This document shows, one piece after another, positions 20,732 to 36,909 of a stretch of DNA of 64,000 nt; position 1 is the first letter of the stretch; each line of letters begins with the position of its first letter. A program made the translations under genes and the position numbers. The notes below the pieces were generated by a model. That model had not been told where the DNA came from, searched no databases, and saw nothing but the letters and a program-made list of their open reading frames with translations. The stretch is from the sequence record PV252060.1; one strand, written 5' to 3'. This DNA is from Escherichia phage nithesis.

Positions 20732-22678
20732 ATGGCTCAAATTACATGGCGTAATGTTGATGCACCTAACTTCTCTGGAGTTGGTGACAGCATTCGCACA
20801 TTTGGCAACATGATTGGTAACGCCACCTCCGGCTTAAGTGATGCACTGGGTAATTTCCAGAACGCTGCCAAGCAGGAGGCTGGCAATGCCGTCATGATGA
20901 ATGCTATGCAGTATCAAGACCCTACTGAGTACCGTAATGCTTTAGCATCCGGTGCACTATTTCAGGGGGTTGACCCTTCATTAGTAAGTCAGCGTACCCT
21001 CCAAAATCTGGATGAACGAGCAGGTACTCTTTTGACCCAACAAGGTCAGCAGGGAATTAATGACTACAATGCTTATCGTTTTGGCCGTTTACAGGATACT
21101 GACTCTGCATTAGATAATGCATCTCCAGCTATTCGTTTACTGTCTGAGGCATATCAGTCTGGTGACCAGAACCGTGTTAATGCTGCACTGAGTCAAACCC
21201 GTGATGCACTGTCTGCACTACCTGCTGACCAACAACTGGATTTGTTGAGTCGTCTACAAGGACAAGGTGGTGCTGCTATTAATCAGGCGAGTAATCGCTT
21301 TGACCTTAATGTACGTCAACGTAATGATGCTGATTCACAAGCTGCATCCGGTATATTGACGGATATTTTCCGTAGTGCTTCTACACCTATGGATGCTCTT
21401 ACACTGGCAGAGTCTGCTATGCAGAATGCTTCCCCGGGTGTACGTGCTGCAATCATGCGAGGTGTGAACCAGAGATTCCCAGGTACTTACGCTACGTCTC
21501 CTTCTGGTTCTGCTCCTGGAACTGCTGGTACTCGTTCTGGTTCTCCTTATGATGCAACCTATACCTTTGCTGCTACTGATAAGCCTATTACTGAAATGAC
21601 ATTAGGTGAGGTTACTAATCATCAGCAAACTATGATTAATAACCCGTCACAAGGTCATTCCCCTGTGGGTGCATTCCAGATTAATAAAGCTACTCTGGAG
21701 GACTATGCTCCTAAAGTACTTGGTTCAGATTGGCGTAATCAGCAAATGACTCCTGAAGTACAGGACAAAATAGCTGAAGCAATCTTTAATGACCGCAAGG
21801 GTGGTAACCTTTCCAAGACTTGGGCTGCATTGCCTGATTTAGGTGTAGGCGGTTATAAGGATATGCCTTGGAGTGAGGCACGTCAGTTAATTGCACAAGC
21901 AGAAGTAGGTGCACCCCTTGATCAGCTACAGACCCAGCAAGTAGTCTCAAACATGGCAGGCAATACGGTTGCTGCTCGTCAGTCTGAAGATAATACTGGA
22001 ACCATTACTGCTAACTATGCTCGTGCATTACGTGACAACTCTACCATTGGTGAAGTAGCAGACCGTCTTCTTAAGGATGCTTTTAAAGGTTCTGAGAAAG
22101 GATGGATGATTGCACGACTGAATGATGTTATGCAGGAATCTGGGCAGTCTCCTGCTGTAGCTGCTGAGATTCTTAAGCAGTCTACTACCAACGTACCGGA
22201 AGGTATGATTAGTCGAGCACTTGATGCACTTAACCCATTCATCTCCAATGAGGGTGGTGGTGGTATTCGTATTGACGATACCGTTGCCAGAGAACTAGCA
22301 CGTTCAGTACGACGTGGGGAAGGTATTGAAGCTACTGCTCGTGATAATGTTCTTACTCTGGTACAGGGTAATATTGAAAATGCTCAGAACCAGGTAACAC
22401 AAGCAGAAGCCTTACTTGCTGATACCCGTCGTCGTGTAGCTGCTGGACAAAGTGGACTTGCTGCTACTATTCCTGCTCGTGAAGCTGAGTTAGTAAGAGC
22501 ACGTGCTGCACTTGATGCTGCTGTTAATACTGTGGTAGCTGACCAGGGAAATCTGGTTCCACAGAACTTCCGTTCTAATGCTTCAGTAGAACGTGAACGT
22601 AGTCGTGAAGATGAAGAACGAGCTAAACGTTATCGAAAATTAGCAGAGGGTTTACCTCCCTATATGCAACCTCGATAA
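20732..22678 (+). CDS. virion protein, function unknown
   Basis: 648-aa ORF immediately upstream of the virion RNA polymerase gene. Confidence 0.4.
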   Translation: MAQITWRNVDAPNFSGVGDSIRTFGNMIGNATSGLSDALGNFQNAAKQEAGNAVMMNAMQYQDPTEYRNALASGALFQGVDPSLVSQRTLQNLDERAGTLLTQQGQQGINDYNAYRFGRLQDTDSALDNASPAIRLLSEAYQSGDQNRVNAALSQTRDALSALPADQQLDLLSRLQGQGGAAINQASNRFDLNVRQRNDADSQAASGILTDIFRSASTPMDALTLAESAMQNASPGVRAAIMRGVNQRFPGTYATSPSGSAPGTAGTRSGSPYDATYTFAATDKPITEMTLGEVTNHQQTMINNPSQGHSPVGAFQINKATLEDYAPKVLGSDWRNQQMTPEVQDKIAEAIFNDRKGGNLSKTWAALPDLGVGGYKDMPWSEARQLIAQAEVGAPLDQLQTQQVVSNMAGNTVAARQSEDNTGTITANYARALRDNSTIGEVADRLLKDAFKGSEKGWMIARLNDVMQESGQSPAVAAEILKQSTTNVPEGMISRALDALNPFISNEGGGGIRIDDTVARELARSVRRGEGIEATARDNVLTLVQGNIENAQNQVTQAEALLADTRRRVAAGQSGLAATIPAREAELVRARAALDAAVNTVVADQGNLVPQNFRSNASVERERSREDEERAKRYRKLAEGLPPYMQPR

Positions 22679-22763: not shown

Positions 22764-25700
22764 TTGAACAGGAATCATGCTATGTCAACATTTGACCGTC
22801 TGGCAGGTTTCGCAGACAGCATCACTACTGCTAAGCAAGTCGATGTCTCTACTGCAACCTCTCGGAAACAAGCTGAACAAGGGCAAAACCCTTTCCAATT
22901 AACTCCTCAGAATGCCTACCAATTACAGGCAGGTCGTGCTGGTAACTTAGGTGCTGGTGCATTTGACCTAGGTTCTATTCAGGCAGATTTTACTAATGCC
23001 TCTCCTCTTGAAATCATAAACAAATATGGCAATGAGCAAGGAATGGACATTCTCAATGCCCGTGTCAATGCAGCTAATGCTGTTCGTCGTGATTTAACTA
23101 AGAGTCGTACATATGGTGAAGCACTTGGTGATACCCTCTCTGGTGTTGGTCTTGGTGTTGCTAATACCCTTGGGGGCATTGCTGCTCTTGGTACAGGTTT
23201 GGTCAATGATAATGCCGGGGCATCCATTGCTTCCGGTCTTGACTGGTTAAACAAAGGTGTACACAACCTACAGTCTGATGCATTGAATGCTCGTCGTAAT
23301 GTAGTACAGAACCAGAACGTAATATCTGCACAGGAAAATGAGAAACTCTATAAGCAAGATGTTGCTAAAGGAGAAAGTGAACTCGTTGCATCCTTATCTC
23401 GTATTGGTCGTGATGCTTATGATTCTGTTGCTAATACTTTGTCCAATGGCATGGCTGCTACAGATGGACTGGCTGAGGGTGTTGGTTCTCTGTTTACTGG
23501 TGGCCCACTTATCCGTGGTGTATCTGCGCTCGGTAAAGTAATGGTAGGTGGTGATAAAGCTGTTAAGGGTATTACCCTAGCTGCTGAGTTAGGTTCACGT
23601 CCTGCACGTACTGCATTAGCTACTGGTCATGTTGCTGCACCTGCTATAGCAATTGGTGGTATGGAAGCTGGTGGTGCATACCAACAGACTGCTAATGAAA
23701 TTATGGAAATGCCATTCAGTGAGTTGGCTGCTAAATCTCCAGTATACCAACAGCATATTAAAGATGGTTTATCTCCTGAAGAAGCACGTCGTCAGACTGC
23801 ATCTGAAACAGGTATCACTGCTGCTGGCTTAACTGCTCCGGTTGCTGCTCTTACTGGTCCACTGGTATCCAAGTTTGAACTTAATCCACTTAAAGTAGGT
23901 TCATTGGCTGGTGCTGGTTCTAACATGCTGCGTGAGACTGTAGAAGAAGGTATCCAGTCTGGTACAAGTCAGTTTGCACAGAACAAAGCAATTCAGGGTA
24001 ATGTAGATGCTAATCGTGATTTGCTTAAAGGTGTGGGTGAACAAACTGGTCTTGGTGCATTGTATGGCTTTGGTTCTGCTGGAGTTGCTCAAGCTCCTGG
24101 TGCAACTGTTAAGGCTGCTGGTGCTGCCGTTGGTCCTGCTGTACGTACTACCCTGGCTGGTGCTTCTCTGGCTGGTAAGGCATTAGTAAAAGCTGCCTCC
24201 CCTATTACTAACATTCTGGTTCAACGTGGGGAAGAAATAGCCAAACGTAATGAACAAGCATCCCCTGTATCAGATGCTACGGTTAACGCTGCTGCACAAG
24301 AAGCTACTGCTCAGGCAGAACAAGCACAAGCAATTGTTCAGGAAGCAGTAGATGCAATGGATATTTCTCCTGAAGAGAAAGCTGCTGCTACTCAGTATGC
24401 TGCTGACTTAACTCAGGCGATGAAGTTCGACCCAGTAGAACTGGAACAAGCTAGTCCTGCAATCCATGAAGCTGTTTCTGGTTCCACTAACCGTGTTGAA
24501 GCTATTCAGAAGATGGCTGACTTGGTTAATACTGCTGAAGACCCTAATGTTCAAATGGAAGCTGCAATCCAGATGTATGACAACATCATGTCTATGGATA
24601 GCTTCATTAACCGTGACCCAGGTGCATTAGCTAATCTGGAACAAGGTTCTCCTGCTGCTAATATTGTTGACCAGTTCTCTGGTCTGATGGCTAACGTTCA
24701 GAATACACCAAAGGTACTTCGTGCATTCCGTGCTATTCATTCTATGATTCAGGAACAGGCTGAAGCAGGTAAACTGAAAGCTACTGAGGAAGCCAACCAA
24801 GCTCAGGCAAACAATATTGCTATGGCTGCTGATATGTCTCCAGAAGTACTGGATGCAGATTCAGTGAACATGGTTCTGAAACATGCAAGTGAAGGTAAGA
24901 TTACACTGGGGAATCGTCAGCGTGCTGCCCTGCAATCTGCTGCTGCTCTATTGCAAGGAGCACGAGAATTTGACGCTAAAGCAGAAGAACTAGGCTTACG
25001 TCCTCAAGACATTGTTAGTAAACAGATTAAAACCGACGAATCTCGTTCTAATGAAGGCCAGTACTCTGCGTTGCAACATGCTAAACGCATTCGTTCTGCG
25101 TACAACTCTGGTAACTTCGATTTGGCTTCCGCTTATCTCGACGACTTTATGAAGTTCGCCCAGCACATGCAGAATAAGGTCGGAGCGTTGAATGAGCATC
25201 TGATTTCTGGGAATGCGGATAAGAATAAGTCTGTCCATTATCAGGCTCTTACTCCCTCCCGTGAATGGGTACGTAGTCGTACTGGCCTCGGTATCAATCC
25301 GTATGATACCAAGTCTGTTAAGTTTGCCCAGCAAGTAGGACTGGAAGCCAAGACCGTAGCTGATATTGCTAACGCACTTGCTACGGCTTACCCGGAGCTT
25401 AATGTTTCTCATGTGAAAGTTACCCCATTGGATTCACGTCTGAACAAGCCTGCTGCCCAGGTAGTTAAAGAGTTCCGTCAGGGCAATCTTGATGCTGCTC
25501 AATCCCAACAGACCAATGAACCAGTGAATCAGGTTGATGAAACTCCTGTTACGAAACAGGAACCAGTTACCCCTACTGTACAGACTAAACCCTCTGTTAG
25601 TGAAGCTGTTAAAACAGAACCTACTATTAAAGAGTCTAAACCACAGACTGTAAAAGAACCTGAGAATCAGTCTGAAAAACAGGATGTCATCGAGAAGTCT

Positions 25701-28700
25701 ACTGAATCTGAAAGGGATACTTATGTGAAAGAGAATACTATTTCACAGGAAACCCTTAATAAGTATGGCGACCGTAAAGAGAGTCCTTGGCTCTTCGCAG
25801 ATGGTACTGTTGTTGGTTCTAATGGTGACCATATCAGTCTGTCCGATGTGTTTGGGCATGATGGTTATCGCGATATGTCTATGGACACTGGTGCTGTTCG
25901 CTCTACCTTCTACAAAGGAAGTGAGCAACCATTTGTATCATTGCAACTGTTTGATAATCAGAAGCTGACTGCTGAACAATTCAATACTGTTCAATCATTC
26001 GTAGAAGCAAACAATGCACTGATTCAGATTGGTGTAGATATGTCTGGGCGTAATACCAATAACGTTGAAAAAGAAGAAGTATCACTGGCTCAACTGAAAG
26101 CAGACTATACCGTTGGTGGTAAACCTCTATCGGAAATGGAAACAGTGTTCCCTGTCTATAACAATGACAAAACACCGAACCAGTTCCTTAAAGCATTTTC
26201 TCTGCCAGAAGAACCTAAGTCCCGTACCATTGGTTCTGAGTCTCCTTTGACTGATGTTAAGAAAGCACTGTCTTCTGCTGCTCGCTTTGAAGCATTCACT
26301 CAAAAAGAAAATAACGCTCTCACAAATGATGTGATTAAGCGTTATCAGGACTTGTTTGATTTTGGTGAAACTTTGAAGACTACTCTGTCTGACCGTCTGG
26401 CTAAGTTCCTTGCTAACAAGAACGTTGGTAAACGTTTTGTAGAAGGTACTGAGGCTAACCGTTGGGTAGGTGGTAAGTTACTTAACATCGTTGAGAAAGA
26501 TGGTGATACCTTTAAGTTCAATGACCAGTTGTTAGAGACTGCTGTACTTGCTGGTCTGCAATGGCGATTAACTGCTACACAGAATGCTGCTGTTAAAGAC
26601 GTGAAAGACGTAGCTGCTATTACTGGTGTAGAAGCATCTCTGCTACCAGAAGGCATTTTGGCTGACTTCGAAAATGCTCAGACATTGGTTGAAGCTACTA
26701 ACTCACTGGCTCAAAAGATTGAATCTTATTGGGGTTTAAATCGTAATCCTAATGCACCACTGGGTTATACCAAGGGTATCCCAATGGCAATGGCTACAGA
26801 GATTCTGTCTTCTCTCATTGAAATGGGTGAAGTTAAAGAGTCCATGCTGGATGTATCTGAGATTGACCCAGAATCTAACAAGACTGTTGGTCTGTATACC
26901 ATTGAGAAGTTAGATGATAACGATGCCATTAACAAATTCCCTACTGCTATTGAAGAAGCTGTTCTCGTAGAACCAGTAGAGAAATTGTACCTGGGTGATG
27001 ATATTCCTTCCGTGGCTCAAACTCAGTTACGTAACCCGGCTGTTAAGAATACCCCGGAACAGAAAGCTGCTCTTAAAGCTGAGCAGGCTACTGAGTTCCG
27101 TGTACATATGCCGATGGTTAACTTCTACGAAGCATTAGGTCGCGACAATATTCTGGAATTGATGGGTGCTGGTGCTCTTAATCCAGAATTGTTGAATGTG
27201 AATACTGCTAAGTCTCTGGAAGGTAAAAACCTGTCAGTGTCTATGGCATATGATTCTTTGTTTGGTGTAATCAACCAGATTAAGGAACAAGAGAATGGTC
27301 TGGATACACCTATTCACTACGGTTACAACATGACCCGTGTAGGTCGTATGCAGATGCTTGGTAAGAACAACCCACAGTCCAGCAAGTTGGTTCGTGAAGC
27401 AATTCTGCCAACCTTCTCTACTATCGACTTGAGTAATGAAAACAGCCAAACGTTCTCTGATTTCCAGTTAGGTCTGGCTCAGGCATTGGGTATCAAAGTT
27501 CATAAAATGTCCCGTGAAGTTATGTCAGATGAGCTGACTAAAGCTCTGGAAGGTAAACTGAAGCCTGCTGTTGATATGATGGTTGAGTTTGATAAGTCTG
27601 GACACTTACCTACCAATGCAGTGGATATTCTGAAGACTTCTTTGGGAAGCGATAAATCATTCGTAGCTCTTATGGCTCTTATGGAATATGCCCGTTATCT
27701 GAATAGTGATGACCGTGCCAACTTTAATACCCCACTGTACGTTGAAGCCGATGGTGTAACCAATGGGCCAATCAACGCAATGGTATTAATGACTGGTGGT
27801 AAGTTCACATCAGACTGGATTAAGAATACTGCTAAGGGGGGTTTGTTCTTTGGTAAAGCTGGCAAGACTATGAACGAGCATCATTCGCATGAGGACAGTG
27901 TTGACCTGTATGAAGCATCCACTAATAATCTACAACAGGCACTGAATGAATTACGCAATACTTACCGTAACAACGTTCCTGTTATGAACCAGATGAATCA
28001 TCTCCAGAAATTAATGGATTTGTTCATTAAAGACTTCAATCTTAATGAAGATGGTACTCTGGACCTGAAACGTGGTATTGCTAAAAACCCACTGACTATT
28101 ACCATCTATGGTTCTGGTGCTCGTGGTATTGCAGGCAAGATGGTTAGTGCAATTACTGATGTCATCTATGAACGCTTTAGTGACGTTCTGCAAGCTCGTG
28201 CTGCTGACCCTAGCATTTCTCCAGCTATGGCTATGTTTGGTAAGGAGGCTGCGTCTGAGGCCGATGCTCAGGCTATGCTGGATACTTTCCTTACTTCTAT
28301 GGAAGCACTGACTGGTAATGTTCCGGTTATGCGTAAAGGGGAGTTGTCTATTCAACAAGTAGAAGGTGCTCTGACTGGTAAGTTAAATCCCCAGAAGTTT
28401 ACTGTATCTGGGAATGCTCTGAAGAACTTGCAGGAGAATATGCTCCATCTGTTCGTTGAACCAATGCGTACTGGTATCCGAAATACTGTTGGTGAGGGTT
28501 TGATGCATTCTACTGAGAATTTGCAGAAGGCTACTCAGATTCAATCTCTGGTATTGCAGGATATGTTCCAGCAAGCAGTACAGGCTAAGCTGGCAGAAAA
28601 AGAAAAAGACCCAACGTGGAAAAAGGGTGATTTCTTAACACAGAAAGAACTGAATGAAATCCAGAATAGCTTAGCTCCACTGGCTCCAATGATTGAGACT

Positions 28701-31700
28701 GGTTCACAAACTTTTTATATTGCAGGTAGTGAGAATACTGATGTTGCTAACCAGGTTCTGGCTACCAACTTGGATGACCGTATGCGTGTGCCAATGAGTA
28801 TCTATGCTCCGTCACAGGCAGGTGTTGCAGGTATTCCATTTATGACCATCGGTACAGGTGATGGCATGATGATGCAGACCCTTTCTACTATGAAAGGTGC
28901 TCCAAAGAATACCCTGAAAATCTTTGATGGTATGAACATTGGTATCAATGACATTACTGATGCAAGTCGTAAAGCTAATGAGGCTGTATATACTTCCTGG
29001 CAGGGGAACCCTATCAAGAATGTTTACGACTCCTACGCTAAGTTCATGAAGAATGTAGACTTCAGCAAACTGTCTGATGAAACCAAACAGGCTATTGCCA
29101 AGTCTGCTCTGGAATACGACCAGCGTGAGGGTGCTACTGATGACCTGTTACGTGTTGGTGCTGAACAGATTGAACGTAACCTACGTAACATTGCTCTGGG
29201 TGTAGATATTCGTCACAAGGTAATGGACCAGGTGCAGGTCACTGTTGACCAGATGGCTGCTGTTGGTGCTCCTTATGTGAACAACGGTAAAATCTCTCTG
29301 GAAGGCCTTACTGTAGACCAGCAAGTAGCTAAGCTGAACGAACTGTTTGATGCTGAATTAAACAAGCGTCGTGATGCAGTGCGTGCTACTAAAGCAGAAC
29401 CAGTAAAAGAAGTACCTGCTATGGAACAGTTTGGTCGTGTACTGAAGTCTGGTGTACGTCTGCTGTCTAATACTGCCATTGCTAAACTGGCTAAAGAGAT
29501 GTCTCCTGAACAGCAAGCAGTATTGAAAGAAATACAGAAATCCCTTGCTGCTAAAGACTATAAAGTTGTTTATGGTACACCTTCTCAACTGGATGCCTAC
29601 GCTATTGAGAAGAATATTACTCGCCCAGCACCAGAAGACATTGAAGCTGCCGAAGCAGGTAATGCATATGGCTGGACTAACTTTGAAGATAAAACCATCT
29701 ATTTAGTTACCCCTTCCTTAGAGACTCTGGTTCATGAATTGGTACATGCTTCTACTTTTGAATCTGTACTGGCTCACTATGAGGGTACTCCTAATGAAGC
29801 AGTCCAGAATATTGAAGACCTGATGAACCAGTTCCGTACTCTGGATGTTAAGGATGAATCTCCGGTAGTACGTGAAGCATATGCTGATGCACTCAATACC
29901 ATTAATGGTCACTTGTCTAATGGTTTTATTGAACCAGCAATGGCTAAAGCTGCTGCACTGAATGAGTACATGGCTTGGGGTTTAACCAACCGTGAACTGA
30001 TTGGTAAGCAGAAGAAAACTACTGCACTTAAAACTATGGTTCAGGCTGTATATGAAGCAATCAAGCGTCTGGTATTCGGACGTAAGAAAGCTCCGGCTAA
30101 TGCAGATGATATGTTCTCTGGTTTACTGTTTAACTCTGCTGTAGTAATGCGTGGACAAGCTCCTACTGCTGCTGTAGCCAAAGACACTACTCTGTTCCAT
30201 AACAAAGCATATGGTGACAATACTCGTCTGGAAGAGCTAGGGAAAACCTTCGATAAGCTGATTACTGACTACATTGGTTCAGAACCAGTACAGCAAGTAA
30301 TTCGTAAAGGTAAGTTCTCTGATGCAGTAGTGAATGCAACTAAAGTAACCCGTGATGTTCAGGCTCATGGCTTCACCATGAATATGCAGGAACAACGTCT
30401 CTTTACTAACATTGTTGCTGCACTAGCTACCGAGGCTGCTATTAATCCAGCTGCTCTGGCTCGTGCACAGGAATACTACACACACGTTACTAAGAACCTG
30501 ACCGTCGAAGCATTCATGGCTGACCCAGATAGTACTAACCCTGCTGACCGTTATTATGCACAGCAGAAGTTCGATACCATCATGGGTGCTAACAACATTG
30601 AGTTTGATGCACAGGGTCGTTCTTCCTTACTGCCTACCTTTGTAGGTCTGGCAATGGTAAGTGAGGAAGTACGTAAGGTACTGGCTGACATTCCTGTTAT
30701 GAAAGCAGATAAGAAATCTGGCAATACTGTTGATGCAATGCTGACTAACATCGGTACTGCTGCAATGGCTAGTCTGAATGCTCGTGTAGCAGGTGATACT
30801 AAAGCTACTAACGTACAGGAAGGTATGGATGCACTGGCTCAGACAATCATGCAGACCAGTCTTAATGCAGAGTCTTTCTATGATTCAGTTGCTACCCCTA
30901 CCGGTAATGCTATTGACCGTGCTAACCAGTATCTGGTGGATTCTATTGATGTACTGTCTACCCGTGCTTTGGAAGGTGCTCGTGAAGTTGCAGCTAATAC
31001 CAAGAACCCACTGGTTAAAGGTGCTGCTCATGCTGCACAACTGGTAGCTGCTATTGCTACAGAGAAGAATGGTTCAATCGTAGCCGAAGGTGTTATGACT
31101 GCAATGAACCAGGGTAAAGTATGGCAACCTTTCCATGACCTGGTTAATGACATAATCGGTCGTACTAAGAGCAATGCTTCTGTATATGACTTGATTAAGG
31201 CAGTACGTGCACAGGTACAGGCTGACCGTCAGCAGTTCCGTGAACACTTGCCTACCACTATCGCATCTAAGTTCAGCCGTAAGCTGACTAATGATGAGTG
31301 GAAAGCAATGCATACCGGTATGGGTAAAACTGACTTAGCTGTTCTGCGTGACACTATGTCTCTGGATGAAATCCGTGACCTACTGTCTGACCAGAAAATT
31401 GTTGACCGTGAGGTTAATAAACTGGAAGCAGATTTGCAGAAACAAGCAGGACGTAACTGGCCTCTGATTAATCGTAAATCTAAGCAACTGGCTCAGTACA
31501 TGATTAATGGTACTGTTGGTAATAACCTGCTGCGTAATGCTACTGCAATTTCTCGTTTGCTGGGTGAACGTAAGACTACCAGTTCTATCGTAGATGTAGC
31601 TCAACTGGATAAACTCATTACCCTGTATGCACTAGAAGCAATGAATAAGACTGACCGTGAGATGTTATCTTCACTGGCTCAGACAGAAATTGAAGGTATG

Positions 31701-33536
31701 GACTTTGCTACTTCTTATCTGGTTGGTCAGCGTAAAGATGAAATGGCTAAAGCCAAGTCTGATAGCCGTGCAACCATGAACCAGTACAAAGGATATATCC
31801 CTGGTGAGAACAAACAGGGTGTTAACCTGATTGTTGCTGAAGATAGTCAGTTTGCTGATTTGATTGAGAAATCCTATGTACGACTGGGCACTTATCATGG
31901 TAGCTCTGCTAACCGTGGTCCAGCACGTAGCTACTACTTTGCACCAGTACAGGCACAGGCTCCATTCTCACAGGGTATCCTACAGAACGTTCGTAATACT
32001 GCTAGTGGTGTAGACCTTGGCACAGGCTTTACGATGGGAACCATGGTAGCTGGTCGTATTACTGACAAGCCTTCCGTGGACCGTATTACTAAAGCACTGG
32101 CTCGTGGTGAACGTGGTAATGAACCACTGCTGCCTGTATATGATGCTAATGGTAATGTGGTTGCTTATGAGCAATCCATTGACCCTAACATGCTGAAGCA
32201 TATTGAAGGTGAGAACCATCTTGCTCGTGCAATTGGTGTATGGCGTGGTCGTCAGGTGGAAGAAGCTAAGGCTCAGCGTTTCAACGATATGCTGATTGAA
32301 AACCTGCATAGCATGTATGAGAACGACCTTAAGATGTCTGCCTCTAATAAGTCCCAGTACGTTAACCTTCTTGGTTCTAAACTGGACCCAGTGACTGCTG
32401 ATGCACTTAAGCTGATGAACAGTGAAACTCGTCAGAAAGCAGAAAGTTTGTTTGGCCCGGGTGAGCTGTGGGTGCGTCGTGACATGCTTAATGATGCTCT
32501 TGGTTATCGTGCAGCTTCTGTTGGTGATGCCTGGTCTGGTAATTCTCGATGGTCCCCAGAAACACTGGATACCTTTAAGAAAGCTATGCTGGGTGTATTC
32601 GGCAACCGTGCTTACAAGTACGTAATGGGTGGTGAGAACCTGGTTCAGAACTTAGTTAAAGAAGCTAAGACCCTGATTGTAGTTAAGTCAGTAGTCGTAC
32701 CTGCTGTTAACTTCTTGGCTAACCTTTACCAGATGGTTGCTCGTGGTGTACCTGTTAAGAACATTGCTAAGAGCATCCCACAGAAAACTGCTGAGATTAA
32801 TCAGTACCTTAAATCTCGTCTGCGTCAGGTAGATGCAGAAGCAGAATTACGTGCAGCTACTAACCCGAACCAGATTCGTAAACTTAAGGCTGAGATTCAG
32901 TCCATCTCTGATAGTCATAAGCGTTTGAGTATCTGGCCTCTGTTGGAAGCTGGTGAGTTCTCCTCAATTGCAGATGCTGGTATTGGGCGAGATGATATTC
33001 TGATTACTGAAGGTAAACTTCACGAATACATGGAAAAGCTGGCTGATAAGTTGCCTAAGTCTGTACGTAACGCAGGCCGTTATGCACTTATCACTAAGGA
33101 TACTGCTCTGTTCCAGGGTATCCAGAAGACGGTTGAGTACTCTGACTTTATCGCTAAAGCAATCATCTATGATGAACTGACTCAGCGTAAAGGTAAGACT
33201 CGTGAAGAAGCACTTGGACGTGTAACGGAAGAGTTTATTAACTATGACCGTCTGCCTGGTCGCTTCCGTGGGTATATGGAAAGTGTTGGTCTGATGTGGT
33301 TCTACAACTTTAAGATTCGTTCTGCAAAAGTTGCAGTGTCCATGATTCGTAACAACCCAGTTCATGCTGCTATGGCTATGTTGGCTCCAACTCCTACCAT
33401 GTTTGGTAACGTTGGTCTTCCTATTCAGGACAACATCTTTAGTATTGCTGCACAAGGCAACCTCGGTTACTCCTTCGGATTCGGTCAAGGCTTACGTGCC
33501 CATACTCTGAACCCTTGGCTCAACCTCACTAACTAA
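22764..33536 (+). CDS. virion-encapsidated giant RNA polymerase (N4 vRNAP-like)
   Basis: 3590 aa single ORF, the hallmark of N4-like phages; central region has T7-like polymerase motif B-like LKRGIAKNPLTITIYGSGARG near nt 28081. Confidence 0.85.
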   Translation: MNRNHAMSTFDRLAGFADSITTAKQVDVSTATSRKQAEQGQNPFQLTPQNAYQLQAGRAGNLGAGAFDLGSIQADFTNASPLEIINKYGNEQGMDILNARVNAANAVRRDLTKSRTYGEALGDTLSGVGLGVANTLGGIAALGTGLVNDNAGASIASGLDWLNKGVHNLQSDALNARRNVVQNQNVISAQENEKLYKQDVAKGESELVASLSRIGRDAYDSVANTLSNGMAATDGLAEGVGSLFTGGPLIRGVSALGKVMVGGDKAVKGITLAAELGSRPARTALATGHVAAPAIAIGGMEAGGAYQQTANEIMEMPFSELAAKSPVYQQHIKDGLSPEEARRQTASETGITAAGLTAPVAALTGPLVSKFELNPLKVGSLAGAGSNMLRETVEEGIQSGTSQFAQNKAIQGNVDANRDLLKGVGEQTGLGALYGFGSAGVAQAPGATVKAAGAAVGPAVRTTLAGASLAGKALVKAASPITNILVQRGEEIAKRNEQASPVSDATVNAAAQEATAQAEQAQAIVQEAVDAMDISPEEKAAATQYAADLTQAMKFDPVELEQASPAIHEAVSGSTNRVEAIQKMADLVNTAEDPNVQMEAAIQMYDNIMSMDSFINRDPGALANLEQGSPAANIVDQFSGLMANVQNTPKVLRAFRAIHSMIQEQAEAGKLKATEEANQAQANNIAMAADMSPEVLDADSVNMVLKHASEGKITLGNRQRAALQSAAALLQGAREFDAKAEELGLRPQDIVSKQIKTDESRSNEGQYSALQHAKRIRSAYNSGNFDLASAYLDDFMKFAQHMQNKVGALNEHLISGNADKNKSVHYQALTPSREWVRSRTGLGINPYDTKSVKFAQQVGLEAKTVADIANALATAYPELNVSHVKVTPLDSRLNKPAAQVVKEFRQGNLDAAQSQQTNEPVNQVDETPVTKQEPVTPTVQTKPSVSEAVKTEPTIKESKPQTVKEPENQSEKQDVIEKSTESERDTYVKENTISQETLNKYGDRKESPWLFADGTVVGSNGDHISLSDVFGHDGYRDMSMDTGAVRSTFYKGSEQPFVSLQLFDNQKLTAEQFNTVQSFVEANNALIQIGVDMSGRNTNNVEKEEVSLAQLKADYTVGGKPLSEMETVFPVYNNDKTPNQFLKAFSLPEEPKSRTIGSESPLTDVKKALSSAARFEAFTQKENNALTNDVIKRYQDLFDFGETLKTTLSDRLAKFLANKNVGKRFVEGTEANRWVGGKLLNIVEKDGDTFKFNDQLLETAVLAGLQWRLTATQNAAVKDVKDVAAITGVEASLLPEGILADFENAQTLVEATNSLAQKIESYWGLNRNPNAPLGYTKGIPMAMATEILSSLIEMGEVKESMLDVSEIDPESNKTVGLYTIEKLDDNDAINKFPTAIEEAVLVEPVEKLYLGDDIPSVAQTQLRNPAVKNTPEQKAALKAEQATEFRVHMPMVNFYEALGRDNILELMGAGALNPELLNVNTAKSLEGKNLSVSMAYDSLFGVINQIKEQENGLDTPIHYGYNMTRVGRMQMLGKNNPQSSKLVREAILPTFSTIDLSNENSQTFSDFQLGLAQALGIKVHKMSREVMSDELTKALEGKLKPAVDMMVEFDKSGHLPTNAVDILKTSLGSDKSFVALMALMEYARYLNSDDRANFNTPLYVEADGVTNGPINAMVLMTGGKFTSDWIKNTAKGGLFFGKAGKTMNEHHSHEDSVDLYEASTNNLQQALNELRNTYRNNVPVMNQMNHLQKLMDLFIKDFNLNEDGTLDLKRGIAKNPLTITIYGSGARGIAGKMVSAITDVIYERFSDVLQARAADPSISPAMAMFGKEAASEADAQAMLDTFLTSMEALTGNVPVMRKGELSIQQVEGALTGKLNPQKFTVSGNALKNLQENMLHLFVEPMRTGIRNTVGEGLMHSTENLQKATQIQSLVLQDMFQQAVQAKLAEKEKDPTWKKGDFLTQKELNEIQNSLAPLAPMIETGSQTFYIAGSENTDVANQVLATNLDDRMRVPMSIYAPSQAGVAGIPFMTIGTGDGMMMQTLSTMKGAPKNTLKIFDGMNIGINDITDASRKANEAVYTSWQGNPIKNVYDSYAKFMKNVDFSKLSDETKQAIAKSALEYDQREGATDDLLRVGAEQIERNLRNIALGVDIRHKVMDQVQVTVDQMAAVGAPYVNNGKISLEGLTVDQQVAKLNELFDAELNKRRDAVRATKAEPVKEVPAMEQFGRVLKSGVRLLSNTAIAKLAKEMSPEQQAVLKEIQKSLAAKDYKVVYGTPSQLDAYAIEKNITRPAPEDIEAAEAGNAYGWTNFEDKTIYLVTPSLETLVHELVHASTFESVLAHYEGTPNEAVQNIEDLMNQFRTLDVKDESPVVREAYADALNTINGHLSNGFIEPAMAKAAALNEYMAWGLTNRELIGKQKKTTALKTMVQAVYEAIKRLVFGRKKAPANADDMFSGLLFNSAVVMRGQAPTAAVAKDTTLFHNKAYGDNTRLEELGKTFDKLITDYIGSEPVQQVIRKGKFSDAVVNATKVTRDVQAHGFTMNMQEQRLFTNIVAALATEAAINPAALARAQEYYTHVTKNLTVEAFMADPDSTNPADRYYAQQKFDTIMGANNIEFDAQGRSSLLPTFVGLAMVSEEVRKVLADIPVMKADKKSGNTVDAMLTNIGTAAMASLNARVAGDTKATNVQEGMDALAQTIMQTSLNAESFYDSVATPTGNAIDRANQYLVDSIDVLSTRALEGAREVAANTKNPLVKGAAHAAQLVAAIATEKNGSIVAEGVMTAMNQGKVWQPFHDLVNDIIGRTKSNASVYDLIKAVRAQVQADRQQFREHLPTTIASKFSRKLTNDEWKAMHTGMGKTDLAVLRDTMSLDEIRDLLSDQKIVDREVNKLEADLQKQAGRNWPLINRKSKQLAQYMINGTVGNNLLRNATAISRLLGERKTTSSIVDVAQLDKLITLYALEAMNKTDREMLSSLAQTEIEGMDFATSYLVGQRKDEMAKAKSDSRATMNQYKGYIPGENKQGVNLIVAEDSQFADLIEKSYVRLGTYHGSSANRGPARSYYFAPVQAQAPFSQGILQNVRNTASGVDLGTGFTMGTMVAGRITDKPSVDRITKALARGERGNEPLLPVYDANGNVVAYEQSIDPNMLKHIEGENHLARAIGVWRGRQVEEAKAQRFNDMLIENLHSMYENDLKMSASNKSQYVNLLGSKLDPVTADALKLMNSETRQKAESLFGPGELWVRRDMLNDALGYRAASVGDAWSGNSRWSPETLDTFKKAMLGVFGNRAYKYVMGGENLVQNLVKEAKTLIVVKSVVVPAVNFLANLYQMVARGVPVKNIAKSIPQKTAEINQYLKSRLRQVDAEAELRAATNPNQIRKLKAEIQSISDSHKRLSIWPLLEAGEFSSIADAGIGRDDILITEGKLHEYMEKLADKLPKSVRNAGRYALITKDTALFQGIQKTVEYSDFIAKAIIYDELTQRKGKTREEALGRVTEEFINYDRLPGRFRGYMESVGLMWFYNFKIRSAKVAVSMIRNNPVHAAMAMLAPTPTMFGNVGLPIQDNIFSIAAQGNLGYSFGFGQGLRAHTLNPWLNLTN

Positions 33537-34124: not shown

Positions 34125-34505
34125 TCAGATTGTACAACCACCACCGTCACAGGTGTTGTTTTCTGCAAATGAAGCCAGAGCCTTAGCAGTCTCTTCTTTC
34201 TCGTGCAGTGCCTGACGTAGCAGGTAACCTTCTAATTCCCAAATCTTATTGAATGCATTTTCATATGCATACTGACGACCCTTCTGTTCATCATAGATAG
34301 CAGGGTCTACGCAAGCAGATACACCTTCAATTTTGAATCCATTTTCCAGGATGATAATGCAATGGGTTGTCAGACCCAGATTAGCCAAATCATCTGCTGG
34401 AAGTGCAGAAGGATCAACGAATGCAGACTTCACTGCGTCAGCACCATTGAAAAAGTAAATGCTCTTAATCTTAGCTTCGATTGCTTCTTTACTTACTGTT
34501 GCCAT
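34125..34505 (-). CDS. conserved phage protein (N4 gp49-like family, tentative)
   Basis: About 126 aa; recalled similarity in character to the Phage_gp49_66 family and matching position; start moved to internal ATG with AGG upstream. Confidence 0.35.
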   Translation of the reverse strand: MATVSKEAIEAKIKSIYFFNGADAVKSAFVDPSALPADDLANLGLTTHCIIILENGFKIEGVSACVDPAIYDEQKGRQYAYENAFNKIWELEGYLLRQALHEKEETAKALASFAENNTCDGGGCTI

Positions 34506-34565
34506 TATTAACCTCATAGAGTGGTTTGAATTTGTACTTAAACATGATTGTGCTTATTAATACTC

Positions 34566-34595: not shown

Positions 34596-34717
34596 AGTAG
34601 CTTTAACTTAGCTAACGAGGCTAGGTCTCTTAGTATATATTAGTAGAGTGCCGGACTGTCTCACCGGCATTGTCTTTAGAGTGCAATGCAATCAGGACTA
34701 TGTTCTCTATTAAAAAG

Positions 34718-34791
34718 TACCCACTACTGGATTTGAACCAGTGACCTTCCGATTATTAGTCGGTTGCTTTCCCCGTCTAAGCTAAGTGGGC
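34718..34791 (-). tRNA. tRNA gene, anticodon uncertain (apparent AAU with mismatched anticodon stem)
   Basis: Minus-strand cloverleaf: acceptor GCCCACT/AGTGGGT, D-arm GCTT..AAGC, T-arm ACTGG-TTCAAAT-CCAGT; anticodon arm ACCGA-CUAAUAA-UCGGA has an A-A mismatch; no encoded CCA. Confidence 0.55.
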
Positions 34792-34796
34792 ATAAA

Positions 34797-34872
34797 TGGT
34801 TACCCGGACAGGATTCGAACCTGCGTCCTAGTTGGTTTACTAGTGGGGCTTTACCACTAAGCCTACCGGGTA
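34797..34872 (-). tRNA. tRNA-like gene with non-canonical 6-nt (or 8-nt) anticodon loop
   Basis: Acceptor TACCCGG/CCGGGTA, D-arm GGCT..AGCC, T-arm GCAGG-TTCGAAT-CCTGT, encoded CCA; the only good anticodon stem (CTAGT/ACTAG) leaves a 6-nt loop AAACCA. Confidence 0.5.
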
Positions 34873-35315
34873 TTAATGAGTGAGTCATGCCAGACTTTAA
34901 CTGGCTCCTTCTTCGCAATCCTTACATACCCCTACATAATTATTGCGTTAAGCTTTTTTGTTTAAGTTTAAATGAAGGCGTTCTTGCTGACTCATAATAG
35001 AGTGGGCGTTTGACGAATGACTAGTTCGTTACTACCCGTTTGCCATAAGTACCTGGCGACTTTGGTTTGAGGTGGGAGTCCGAGTCCTGTACAGCCTTAC
35101 CGTTCACACATTGGCAGCGTATCTAGAATAGCACTTCCGGCAACTGGATTTAACTGTTACACCCCAAATCTGGTAGGGGCGTCCAGAGGTCTCATCTGGT
35201 ACTTACGCCGTCGTATGGTTACGCCTTACCCCCATAATTCTTATAATTCAGAGTAGCACTGCTCCATGTTTGGCCTTTGAACTCCGGGATGGATTAGTGC
35301 AATGCTACTTTGAAT

Positions 35316-35439
35316 TGGTTACCAGTGAAGGATTCGAACCTCCGGTTGGAGTCTATAGCTTACCGCAGCAGCCCTCCAATCTAGCGGTGTCACACTTAGT
35401 CCAAACTTGAACATGTCAAGCCATCTCGTGCAACTGGTA
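35316..35439 (-). tRNA. tRNA-like element with elongated body (124 nt; insertion-containing or degenerate tRNA)
   Basis: Canonical 3-prime module (GGAGG-TTCGAAT-CCTTC, acceptor ACTGGTA, A, CCA) but the only complementary 5-prime acceptor strand (TACCAGT) lies about 120 nt upstream; internal hairpins present. Confidence 0.3.
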
Positions 35440-35441
35440 AT

Positions 35442-35507
35442 TGGTTCCGGCGTCTGGACTCGAACCAGAACACTCATGCCGTGCACGACACTAGTACCTA
35501 CACCGGA
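35442..35507 (-). tRNA. short tRNA-like element (66 nt, apparently lacking a normal D-arm)
   Basis: Acceptor TCCGGTG/CGCCGGA with one G-U pair, T-arm TCTGG-TTCGAGT-CCAGA, encoded CCA; only 31 nt between acceptor and T-stem. Confidence 0.3.
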
Positions 35508-36507
35508 ATTAATTGCCAGGGATTCCACCTGGCTCCATCTGTTTTTATAGTCACTCAGATATCGTCTGGACTTGTTGTGGTGGCCGGTACTGATCTCCGA
35601 CATAAGGCGCTTATTCGGCGGCGTCGAGCTTGCTTATTCGCTTGAGCCATCCTCGTGAGTCAGCCACGTCCCACTGCGCATCAGCCTGCGCATTCACCAC
35701 AACGGAAAGAGCACTTAACAGAAGATAGGTCTGATTGCCTCGGATGATTTCTCAGTAGCCTAAATGCTCTTACCTGTTGTGTGCCCATTATTAATCACAG
35801 CGGGCCACTGCGCCGAATTTGCTTACAAGGAGTCGGAAGACCTTGCTGACTTACAGGCTATTACGCCGCCATCAGAATAACATCATCGTTTGCATTTATG
35901 TTATTGGTTCGTTTCTAAAAAAACCGCATAATCGCTACGAAAACTATCGGGGAGTGCACTGAGGGTTAGCTAGACCTCCACAAACTGGGATATCCCTATG
36001 TTTGGTTAGATGGGCTTACCTGTATTAGCGCACTAACACAGTCTTAATCACCACTCTCGCACGATACAATGCACTCTCCGATAGTTCATAATAGGAGGGA
36101 GGAGACGAATCCCCCCTTTATACCCTATATTGCATGTAAGATCTAACAGTTCGATGTTGTAGACGGATAGGCTTATACTTACCGGCATTAAACTCCCGCC
36201 CCCTTAGTGGGCTGGGTTAATTAGTATGCTCAACATGAGCGGTTAGTTGATAAGGTATCTGAAGCCTTATCCAAAAGATACTAACCTTTGGGATATAGCC
36301 TAAGATTCAGAAATGGCCCCTATAGGAGAGGCCATTGATTAACCCTAATGTTGCTTTACATTTTCTGAGATAACCCATTCTTAAAATAGTCTGTCTGACG
36401 GATGGGGGGCCACCCCTAGCGTCAGTGCCATACGGCAAAGATTAAGTTAAGAAAGGTTATGATAGGAGTTCCTATCTCAAAGGATTCTAACAGAACCCTT
36501 CACGATA

Positions 36508-36678
36508 TTAACTACTCTTTTTTAATGCTTCTACTTCACCCTCTTTATACCAAGCATATGGTACTAAGATTTTGCAGCCTTCTGATTCAATGTGAAATGC
36601 TTTCTTTCCTTCAACAGGTTCTCCACCCATGAAAGAACTAACCTTTCCATTGAGCCAGTGAATAGTAAATTTGTTCAT
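36508..36678 (-). CDS. small hypothetical protein
   Basis: 56-aa version of the ORF-track ORF starting at an internal ATG preceded by GAGG. Confidence 0.3.
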   Translation of the reverse strand: MNKFTIHWLNGKVSSFMGGEPVEGKKAFHIESEGCKILVPYAWYKEGEVEALKKSS

Positions 36679-36909
36679 ATTAGCCTCAGTTGAACCAATG
36701 CACAGGGGAGAGTATTCCTGCACACTGGTTCTGTTGTTGTTACTCTGGCGGCTTGTCACCACCGTGTTTACCACTGCATTTCCACAGGATAATGACAGTG
36801 ATGATAAAAGCTATGTATGGAGCCGACACGTCTATAATCCTGACCAGTAGTAGCATCAGGACTATAAACACTACCACACCTAGCAGCAGCTTCTGAGCCA
36901 CCTACCAGA

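Follow-up and report, generated by a model that had tools for sequence, protein, structure and literature searches.

A candidate mosaic island of structured RNA modules with a tmRNA-like tag reading frame in Escherichia phage nithesis

Introduction

What does a phage genome hold in 1.6 kb of DNA that offers no credible protein gene? The question is raised by positions 34873-36507 of Escherichia phage nithesis (PV252060.1), from which a stretch of 64,000 nucleotides, referred to below as the window, was analysed. An earlier note on this DNA had described the region as poor in open reading frames (ORFs) and rich in structure, and had proposed that it could hold non-coding RNAs, a replication origin or regulatory structures. 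Our analysis strongly supports the non-coding RNAs and gives them a more specific form: judged by its sequence and by that of its relatives, the region appears to be a mosaic island of structured non-coding RNA modules, all in minus-strand sense. One of these modules, termed here the tag RNA, carries a reading frame resembling that of transfer-messenger RNA (tmRNA). The tmRNA-like tag, the strand and the modules common to unrelated phages had been missed by the earlier note, and the origin that it also considered found no support.

The closest records to the region are Gamaleyavirus phages (PE007, ECBP1, Bp4, St11Ph5, PhAPEC5 and others), with 89-95% identity over about 80% of the query. The phage itself is best classed, on sequence grounds, as a Gamaleyavirus, G7C/Bp4-like, of the N4 family.

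Results

A tag reading frame of the tmRNA type

Read on the minus strand, the tag RNA contains the frame GCA AAC GAU GAU GUU AUU CUG AUG GCG GCG UAA (ANDDVILMAA*), with the resume codon GCA at 35893-35891 and the stop codon UAA at 35863-35861; the frame is preceded by AUAAAU. The tag of E. coli SsrA is ANDENYALAA. In a permissive Rfam search, the segment 35812-35948 (minus strand) gave a sub-threshold match to tmRNA_permuted (29.4 bits, E=0.0014) and another to beta_tmRNA, and the tag stretch was aligned to the tag of tmRNA_permuted. The same RNA is present in the T1-like phage 6947, in HK620 and in the Ackermannvirus Magnus, where tags read ANDDVVLMAA and ANEEMYLAVA, and it is kept in 10/10 Gamaleyavirus relatives, with the tag ANDDV[VI]LMAA or ANEEAYLMVA.

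To analyse the frame, 44 unique copies of the tag RNA were gathered. Six of them are genuine permuted tmRNAs and the remaining 38 form a family without the tRNA-like domain; these 38 copies yield 24 distinct tag sequences and belong to four phage families (Schitoviridae, Drexlerviridae, Ackermannviridae and P22-like phages). All 24 distinct tags have 10 codons, the tenth being GCC, GCG or GCU, and a stop codon (UAA, UAG or UGA) at a fixed position, after which the next nucleotides vary freely. Mean entropy over these tags was 0.57, 0.40 and 0.96 at codon positions 1, 2 and 3, respectively. The entropy pattern, the fixed codon count and the conserved stop are therefore the signature of a decoded frame. 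This frame opens at a resume codon, without a start codon or a Shine-Dalgarno sequence, encodes a degradation-type tag and closes with a stop codon.

The frame is embedded in conserved structure, with a pseudoknot (PK1) upstream of the resume codon and further pseudoknots downstream. Between the end of the PK1-like pseudoknot and the resume codon lie 6 nt (..CAUAAAU, then GCA). Stem 1 of PK1 is 91% paired; its stem 2, read by eye only and in a register that differs from that of the alignment, is CUUUG/CAAAG in the prophage types and UUAUG/CAUAA in Gamaleyaviruses. The stop codon lies inside a hairpin (CUGA/UCAG or CUGG/CCAG) that is 99% paired, with 1 pair changed on both sides. PK2 is an H-type pseudoknot formed by CAAGG/CCUUG and CCGA/UCGG (stems 98% and 88% paired, both partners having changed in 3 and 4 pairs, respectively), and PK3, GGCCCGCUGUGAUUAAUAAUGGGCACAC, was read from the sequence only. 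On the alignment of the 38 sequences the named structure was 83.9% paired and contained 96 double-change cells; shuffles gave 29, and none of 500 attained the observed value. When partners were slid as a control, pairing fell to 37-47%. The tag frame is under coding-type constraint and the helices that flank it covary.

Three contexts bear on how the RNA starts. A strong promoter-like site of the sigma-70 type, TTGACA-17-TAGATT, ends about 58 nt before the resume codon in phage 6947, and another, TTGACA-17-TATAGT, ends about 42 nt before it in the viral contig L201. In HK620 (L002, NC_002730 15560-16267) the tag RNA is flanked by the annotated pR'/qut and by the late terminator tQ and is therefore part of a short late leader RNA. 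Taken with one another, the contexts in 6947, L201 and HK620 indicate that the RNA starts at GAUAGUUUUCG, directly before PK1. The tag RNA, a long helix and a junction core (both described below) fill the late leader of HK620, of about 650 nt, which is the counterpart of lambda 6S RNA. Given this location, lysogens may produce the RNA as well.

No description of these RNAs, and none of the tag peptides, was found in the literature searched, which covered N4-like phages and Gamaleyaviruses, phage tmRNA, structured phage RNAs and the tag peptides.

Search for a tRNA-like domain

The other half of a tmRNA was looked for by several routes. ARAGORN with default settings called no tmRNA either in the window or across 15 related loci, and Rfam at the gathering score found none in the window or in L163, L201, L203 and L156. 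An acceptor stem with G3.U70, together with a T arm and a free CCA, was sought upstream of, downstream of and within the tag RNA, and the core, the long helices and the sequence ahead of the tag were inspected by eye for a G3.U70 acceptor with CCA; neither search found one, and the tRNA-like domain of tmRNA, with G3.U70, T arm and a chargeable 3' ACCA, was not recovered. The CCA-ending tRNA-like RNAs nearby have C3-G70.

ARAGORN was also run in intron mode, in mitochondrial mode and with lowered thresholds. At a 70% threshold it proposed a permuted pseudo-tmRNA at 36182-35770 with the right tag, in which the supposed T arm is a hairpin with a UUCG/CUCG tetraloop and no CCA follows; the proposal was rejected on that account and because the same relaxed run returned 24 calls that were mostly meaningless. 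The sequence GGCCACCA was considered as a 3' end and dropped, since variants keep the pairing yet lose the CCA.

By comparison, genuine permuted phage tmRNAs in viral contigs (tags ANDNAFLMAA, ANDERFLMAA and ANDESAYLMAA) were called by both ARAGORN and Rfam, at 122-130 bits, whereas the copies without the tRNA-like domain were called by neither. Genuine permuted tmRNA genes were found in L134, L158, L218, L130, L174, L168, L161, L199 and L136 (IMG/VR), with ANESVYRLAA among their tags. The tag RNAs without the domain probably derive from the permuted tmRNA genes of these contigs. The tag RNA thus appears to be the messenger half of a tmRNA without a recognisable tRNA-like domain of its own.

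Coding potential and replication origin

The poverty in ORFs is confirmed: the longest ORF in 34873-36507 has 94 aa (35319-35603, minus strand) and all others have at most 57 aa. As had been noticed, the longest overlaps tRNA-like elements on the same strand; it in fact overlies both of them. Eight ORFs of 43-94 aa were scanned against PHROGs. A single good match was obtained, for ORF 36048-36188 (minus strand) with phrog_37481, a family of unknown function (E=6e-24); ORF 35819-35962 gave a weak match (E=0.0024) and the other ORFs of the eight gave no hit. From a conserved ATG the phrog_37481 frame is open for 35-62 codons in Gamaleyaviruses, with differing ends, and for only 21 codons in the Kuravirus homologues, where blocks of nucleotides are kept in another frame. 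As the frame is broken there and the nucleotide blocks persist, conservation is at the RNA level, and phrog_37481 is likely a spurious family made of gene calls laid over a structured RNA, module B, and its UUCG hairpin. In GenBank records, short ORFs labelled "hypothetical" are annotated in this region, some on one strand and some on the other, and their positions do not agree. The ORF list and the PHROGs scan show no credible protein gene in 34873-36507.

The proposal of an origin, for which GC skew and repeats had been suggested as a test, was not sustained. No iterons, tandem repeats or GC-skew switch were found within the region, arrays of direct repeats are absent apart from the tRNA 3' ends, and the G+C content is raised, not lowered (48-51% at 35000-36000 versus about 40-44% in the flanks). 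The sole sign change of the GC skew lies at about 33.3-33.5 kb and coincides with a flip in gene orientation.

Organization of the island

The island and its borders are listed below in the order of minus-strand transcription; all features are on the minus strand.

36508-36774: middle-region gene, bounding the island on the transcription-upstream side
36301-36507: 5' leader, about 85-93% conserved in 10/10 Gamaleyavirus loci
36511-36484: sigma-70-like site TTAATA-16-TAGAAT, in the leader
36425-36395: hairpin CUGACG...CGUCAG, in the leader
about 36336-36311: hairpin AUGGCCUCUCC..GGGGCCAU, in the leader
36095-36300: module B, structured RNA of about 200 nt, ending with a GC-rich UUCG-capped hairpin and then CCUAUUAU (terminator-like)
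35941-36087: long helix 1, a 20-bp stem AACUAUCGGAGAGUGCAUU / AGUGCACUCCCCGAUAGUU with a variable tip; 20-nt arms, 90% complementary
35894-35948: 5' part of the tag RNA, GAUAGUUUUCGU and then the PK1-like pseudoknot (alignment; helix 1 91% paired)
35861-35893: tag reading frame ANDDVILMAA* (sub-threshold Rfam tmRNA hits; codon signature)
35775-35875: stop-codon hairpin, PK2 and PK3 (covariation, PK3 excepted)
35704-35774: long helix 2, ACAGGUAAGAGCAUU (variable tip) AGUGCUCUUUCCGUU (sequence, relatives)
35577-35700: four-way-junction core, about 124 nt (167 unique copies)
35508-35570: small conserved module AUAUCUGAGUGACUAUAAAAACAGAUGG AGCCAGGUGGAAUCCCUGGCA, two hairpins (9/10 Gamaleyavirus and 8 unrelated loci)
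35442-35507: tRNA-like RNA without D arm, 66 nt (consensus fold)
35316-35439: oversized tRNA-like RNA, 124 nt (consensus fold)
35245-35316: long helix 3, AAUUCAAAGUAGCAUUGC...GCAGUGCUACUCUGAAUU (sequence, folding)
34873-35244: conserved non-coding stretch, including module C at about 35058-35177 (z = -1.69)
34797-34872 and 34717-34791: tRNA with an 8-nt anticodon loop and tRNA-Ile(AAU), closing the island
34595-34574: intrinsic terminator, 3' of the tRNA pair
34125-34517: N4 gp48-like gene, adjoining the island

Several structures named in the earlier note can be recognised here. The inverted repeat CTGACG is present (CTGACG 36395-36400, CGTCAG 36420-36425), displaced by about 3 nt from the position first given, and the G/C tract resolves into a hairpin GGGGGGA-UUCG-UCUCCUCCC at about 36096-36117 and a GCCC...GGGGGC pair at about 36190-36210. 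Comparative alignment with related phages recovered conserved blocks and covarying helices. The description of the region as rich in structure holds by covariation across relatives and much less by folding energy, for which z was -0.26 (35565-35955), -2.9 (36085-36340) and -1.69 (34873-35320); as these scores are mostly modest, it rests on the comparative evidence. The Rfam scan that had been recommended gave nothing at the gathering threshold in 34873-36507, even with permissive filters (Rfam 15, E<=5), beyond the sub-threshold tmRNA hits on the tag, and over the whole window the two tRNAs alone passed that threshold.

Module B was present in 10/10 Gamaleyavirus loci and, with changed stems, in the Kuravirus NC-B and the Suseptimavirus EK010. 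It had no Rfam hit; frame-breaking indels adjoin retained blocks of nucleotides and its folding z is the -2.9 given above. In NC-B (L343, about 1120-1200, minus strand) a long helix of the GCAUU/AGUGC type comes after module B and is followed by CCCGAUAGUUUUUAUUUGG, which is the start of a tag RNA that then diverges; it may be a truncated copy.

Helices of about 20 bp with the form GCAUU(tip)AGUGC stand between modules at three places, 36087-35941 (20 bp), 35774-35704 and 35316-35245, all on the minus strand. Within the 64-kb window they are confined to the region, bar a weak 5-bp match at 20784-20895. Because GCAUU/AGUGC contains a U.G wobble, the long helices fit a minus-strand RNA only. Long helix 1 sequesters the 5' end of the tag RNA, and its tip differs among relatives. 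The tip is also variable in other loci, in some of which (L004, L007, L023, L156) it is the T-arm-like GGGUUCGAnUCCC. Pieces of tRNA are nested inside these RNAs, a whole tRNA in a variable arm of the core in L106 and GGGUUCGAnUCCC in the helix tips. The small module AUAUCUGAGUGACUAUAAAAACAGAUGG AGCCAGGUGGAAUCCCUGGCA precedes a long helix in locus L021.

The module C block, of about 120 nt, is found at 80-98% identity in Enquatrovirus-type N4 phages and in myoviruses of about 150 kb from Klebsiella, Enterobacter and Pectobacterium; it has the appearance of a further mobile RNA module.

The mosaic character of the island is apparent among close relatives. Three blocks are common to Gamaleyaviruses at 85-97% (34880-35572, 35857-35963 with the tag, and 36088-36800). 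The interval 35573-35857, with PK2, PK3, a long helix and the core, is present in 24-32N, partial in ShWW44 and PD205, and found in no other relatives, which have two different pseudoknots and then a tRNA-like element instead. A short loop caps helix P1 in ShWW44 where the core would be. Pieces of the non-coding part match 634 phage records, nearly all unannotated there, including T1-like siphophages, HK620, Vi01-like Ackermannviridae, Felix-O1-like phages and others. The tag and core pieces (query 35560-35960) match 552 of 5426 complete E. coli genomes, about a tenth, and no RefSeq feature lies under 24 of the 25 E. coli matches listed.

Every neighbour of 34873-36507 (flanking genes, tRNAs and terminator) is on the minus strand. 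Further away, 22764-33536 (plus strand) is an ORF of 3590 aa, a size matching the N4-type virion RNA polymerase. Homologues of the N4 gp48-like gene are called "anti-CRISPR protein" in two recent GenBank records (24-32N, Mimir124); in PHROGs, matches of the 34125-34517 product are restricted to families of unknown function (phrog_322).

tRNA-like RNAs and tRNAs

The tRNA-like elements reported at 35316-35507 were retrieved, and they belong to a single repeat family formed by four copies of a tRNA 3' end (T arm and acceptor strand). Two copies are part of canonical tRNAs (34717-34872); the others belong to 35442-35507 and 35316-35439 and end in ACCA. The 66-nt RNA has an acceptor stem of 7-8 bp, one long central arm with the loop GUGCAC(A), no D arm and a T arm CUGG UUCGAGU CCAG; its ACCA end is encoded. 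Compensatory changes are seen at 2 of the 22 pairs in its consensus fold, and within the loci compared this RNA is specific to Gamaleyaviruses. In the 124-nt RNA, the acceptor stem, a T arm of sequence GGAGG UUCGAAU CCUUC and a terminal ACCA are accompanied by about 75 nt of additional internal helices; compensatory changes affect pair 3:70 (C-G to U-A) and one T-stem pair (A-U to G-C). Neither RNA was called by ARAGORN with default settings or hit by the Rfam tRNA model at E<=5, and neither is a tRNA cloverleaf above model thresholds.

The two tRNA genes at 34717-34872 pass the Rfam tRNA model, at 64.8 and 40.7 bits. The tRNA at 34797-34872 (minus strand; 40.7 bits) is reported by ARAGORN as "tRNA-???" with anticodon (ac), and in mitochondrial mode with a 4-base anticodon (aacc); its anticodon arm, CUAG-UAAACCAA-CUAG, has an 8-nt loop. 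It could be a frameshift-suppressor, a quadruplet-decoding tRNA or a pseudogene. The tRNA-Ile at 34717-34791 (minus strand) has the unusual anticodon AAU. A tRNA-Ile(AAU) also follows the tag RNA in the unrelated T1-like phage 6947 (L001 1324-1400), and thus may travel with the island.

The junction core

The core (35700-35577) reads GUGGUG AAU GCGC-AGGCUGAU-GCGC (variable arm) GYCGG-AGAUCAGYA-CCGGC CACCAC. It comprises the helices P1 (GUGGUG/CACCAC), P2 (a GCGC stem with the loop AGGCUGAU) and P4 (GYCGG/CCGGC with the loop AGAUCAGYA). Pairing was retained in 161-165 of the 167 unique copies for P1, 161-167 for P2 and 155-161 for P4. Variants keep the pairing through G.U (CGCCAC, CACUAC, CGCCGC) or through changed pairs (UUGGAUG/CAUCCAA, GCGU/ACGU, GCGA/UCGC, GCGG/CCGC, GCAGG/CCUGC, GCCGAC/GUCGGC); given their G.U pairs, the variants fit an RNA in tag sense only. 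Loop 1 (GCUGAU) is complementary to loop 2 (AUCAGY) in 146-167 of the 167 copies, which suggests that the two loops probably kiss.

From GUGGUG to CACCAC the core measures 62-228 nt, a length set by the variable arm, which is absent in the minimal copy L298 and is a whole tRNA in L106 (about 1800, plus strand). Its layout is tRNA-like, with an acceptor-like P1 continuous with a T-like P4 and two nucleotides before a D-like P2; the "acceptor" end is closed and CCA is not conserved. The tag RNA lies upstream of only about one in eight core copies, and the core is therefore an independent module. Copies are often located in short intergenic gaps, after terminase or before lysis genes.

An exact 25-mer of the 5' half of the core, GTGGTGAATGCGCAGGCTGATGCGC, occurs in at least 120 IMG/VR contigs, and the 3' half likewise in at least 120. 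The 25-mer is also found in 50 species-representative genomes (L345-L394) of four proteobacterial classes, the hosts being Enterobacterales, Aeromonas, Betaproteobacteria (Janthinobacterium, Massilia, Undibacterium), the alphaproteobacterium Martelella and a Geobacteraceae metagenome-assembled genome. Such conservation is extreme for a phage-borne non-coding element. Identity of the 25-mer across four proteobacterial classes suggests that the core may dock on a universal, conserved component of translation or of tRNA processing.

The core had no Rfam hit. A hammerhead, a purine-riboswitch-like element and a relation to integron attC sites were also considered for it and dropped: it gives no Rfam match, a hammerhead core sequence is missing, its junction strands show no conservation and its repeats are inverted in arrangement when set against attC.

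Discussion

The region is free of conserved coding, it is oriented along the minus strand, its tag part is homologous to tmRNA and its modules are widespread. The explanation that we hold to be probable, with some reserve, is that the island is a minus-strand array of non-coding RNA genes composed of horizontally exchanged modules and including a tag RNA that acts in ribosome rescue. The island would be made as one leftward precursor, from the gene at 36508-36774 to the tRNA pair and the terminator (34872-34574). RNase P and 3' processing would cut this precursor at its tRNA and tRNA-like structures, and an activity of the RNase III type would do so at the long helices, as the length of these helices and their position between modules suggest. 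The tag RNA would then serve in ribosome rescue. Its likeliest role would be that of the coding part in a split tmRNA whose acceptor is provided in trans, by a neighbouring CCA-ending tRNA-like RNA or by a host system, and the products of stalled ribosomes would thereby receive a phage-specified degradation tag. This tagging step, proposed from sequence, is put forward tentatively and is more doubtful than the array itself; the tag RNA may alternatively serve as a decoy for SmpB or for the ribosome.

Several observations weigh against this explanation or temper it. Canonical trans-translation cannot be taken for granted, as the tag RNA could not be connected with any domain having G3.U70 and a free CCA; moreover, the HK620 transcript is without any CCA-ending tRNA-like element. 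Folding energy shows nothing out of the ordinary for the tag region (z = -0.26), and for so pseudoknotted a sequence it is uninformative. With its 3' half base-paired in the stop hairpin, the tag could owe part of its conservation to RNA structure. Copies of the tag and of the core were gathered with exact anchors, and conservation is therefore overestimated. In the core, true covariation is sparse, and the kissing of the two loops is argued from complementarity, not covariation, because both loops are nearly invariant. The role given to RNase III at the long helices is purely conjectural.

Could the tRNA-like domain be present and simply too divergent for ARAGORN and Rfam? A complete tmRNA, two-piece (permuted) or otherwise rearranged, might have its second part in the core, in a long helix with a T-arm-like tip or in the neighbouring CCA-ending tRNA-like RNA. 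The tRNA layout of the core (P1 and P4 continuous, two nucleotides before the D-like P2), the occurrence of GGGUUCGAnUCCC in some long-helix tips, the likeness of the 5'-end GUUUUCGU to the D-loop analogue GGUUUCGAC of permuted tmRNAs and the ARAGORN proposal of 36182-35770 with the right tag can all be quoted for it. We nevertheless regard it as unlikely. That proposal takes a tetraloop hairpin without CCA for a T arm and stands among 24 mostly absurd calls; variants of the 3' strand of the core (CGCCGC, CACUAC, CAUCCA) keep the pairing and lose the CCA; no acceptor stem of the region has G3.U70; and in two lineages the promoter-like sites leave few nucleotides before GUUUUCG. The island might instead be a graveyard, where decaying fragments of tRNA and tmRNA left by recombination, mostly functionless, are tolerated as spacer. 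Modules are indeed swapped or deleted among close relatives in a strong mosaic, the tRNA-likes are non-canonical, one tRNA has an aberrant anticodon loop and some elements are labelled pseudo-tRNAs in GenBank records. What makes decay quite improbable is that the tag frame, its stop and its helices are kept across four phage groups with a coding signature and compensatory changes, that the exact core 25-mer is retained in four proteobacterial classes and that 10/10 Gamaleyaviruses have kept the tag RNA.

It is very unlikely that the region holds only signals acting in cis (terminators, promoters, processing or stability elements) and no RNA genes. Such a view would draw on the promoter-like and terminator-like sites, on the terminator-like hairpin of module B, on the resemblance of the long helices to processing sites and on the short gaps after terminase or before lysis genes in which core copies often lie. 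However, 1.6 kb far exceeds what such signals need, the tag frame behaves as a decoded sequence, and the same modules have their own promoter and terminator in other phages. A replication origin or small protein genes might be suspected from a long unannotated stretch with raised G+C, from the match of ORF 36048-36188 to phrog_37481 and from the short hypothetical ORFs of several GenBank records. Both are highly improbable in view of the lack of iterons, tandem repeats and a skew switch in the region, of annotated ORFs that differ in strand and position between records, of a phrog_37481 frame that is broken in Kuraviruses and of the missing hits for the other ORFs, bar the weak one for 35819-35962 (E=0.0024).

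Beyond the island array with a tag RNA in ribosome rescue, a wider proposal may be made, which we consider rather unlikely in its full form: many Enterobacterales phages would share an undescribed, horizontally mobile RNA toolkit consisting of a half tmRNA and a tRNA-shaped kissing-loop motif. The groups in which its elements were seen are N4-like, T1-like, Vi01-like and P22-like phages, with module B also in Kuraviruses. The half tmRNA would be decoded on rescued ribosomes, with an acceptor in trans or through a new entry route, a means for the phage to rewrite the tag that stalled proteins, its own or the host's, are given.

What makes a tmRNA is the joining of a tRNA part to an mRNA part. 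A messenger part alone, conserved and apparently decoded, would, if true, mean split or borrowed trans-translation, or phage interference with ribosome rescue, and in either case new biology. The tag RNA occurs in no fewer than four phage families, pieces of the tag and core RNAs reach about one in ten complete E. coli genomes, and as tags differ between phages the tag RNA is directly testable. The core and module B, which reached no Rfam 15 threshold and had no description in the literature searched, are apparently undescribed; they would improve phage annotation, most sampled public records being blank there. Non-coding gaps near the tRNA genes of lytic phages can be arrays of RNA genes.

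Comparison with known systems

The elements at 35316-35507 resemble tRNAs and tRNA-like structures (TLS), such as viral 3' TLS or the Y-RNA-like YrlA of bacteria, in having acceptor stems, T arms with UUCGA loops and an encoded CCA. They differ from tRNA in that one has no D arm, the other measures 124 nt and neither passes tRNA models. The core shares the order and stacking of the helices in a cloverleaf, and departs from tRNA in its closed acceptor end, in the absence of CCA and in a 9-nt "T loop" that pairs with the "D loop".

GOLLD and ROOL are large phage-associated RNAs, reportedly described by Weinberg and colleagues in 2009 and 2017, that are said to lie beside tRNAs or to contain them. 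Like these, the RNAs described here are long, structured non-coding RNAs of phages and prophages beside tRNA genes, and their variable arms are able to accommodate a complete tRNA. They differ in having no Rfam match and other motifs, and in hosts that are Proteobacteria, not mainly Firmicutes.

The closest likeness in the tag region is to permuted tmRNA/SsrA (RF04321, RF01850 and phage copies). The two have in common the GCA resume codon after ..AUAAAU, a 10-codon tag of the type A-N-D/E-x-x-hydrophobic-L-A/M-A/V-A, a stop codon in a hairpin, one pseudoknot just upstream and more downstream, and the tag region found here is near that of the genuine permuted phage tmRNAs (UGAUGGCnGCGUAA). In contrast to permuted tmRNA, the tag RNA is without the G3.U70 acceptor stem, the T arm with a free ACCA and the GGGGCUG 5' strand. 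Its score is 29 bits, where the gathering score is 47 and true copies exceed 120. Its neighbours, long helices and a closed tRNA-shaped junction, are also unlike those of tmRNA. The current tmRNA database, with only 79 phage tmRNAs, demands CCA positions and a tRNA domain of every entry; the converse truncation, that of phage DS6A, is known to it.

Mycobacteriophage DS6A offers a precedent for half-tmRNAs in phages. It carries a partial tmRNA that consists of the tRNA domain only, without a coding sequence, and that is reported to interfere with the host tmRNA in E. coli (PMC11915505). It is the opposite half: in DS6A the tRNA domain is kept and the tag is gone, whereas in the island of phage nithesis the tag is kept and the tRNA domain is gone.

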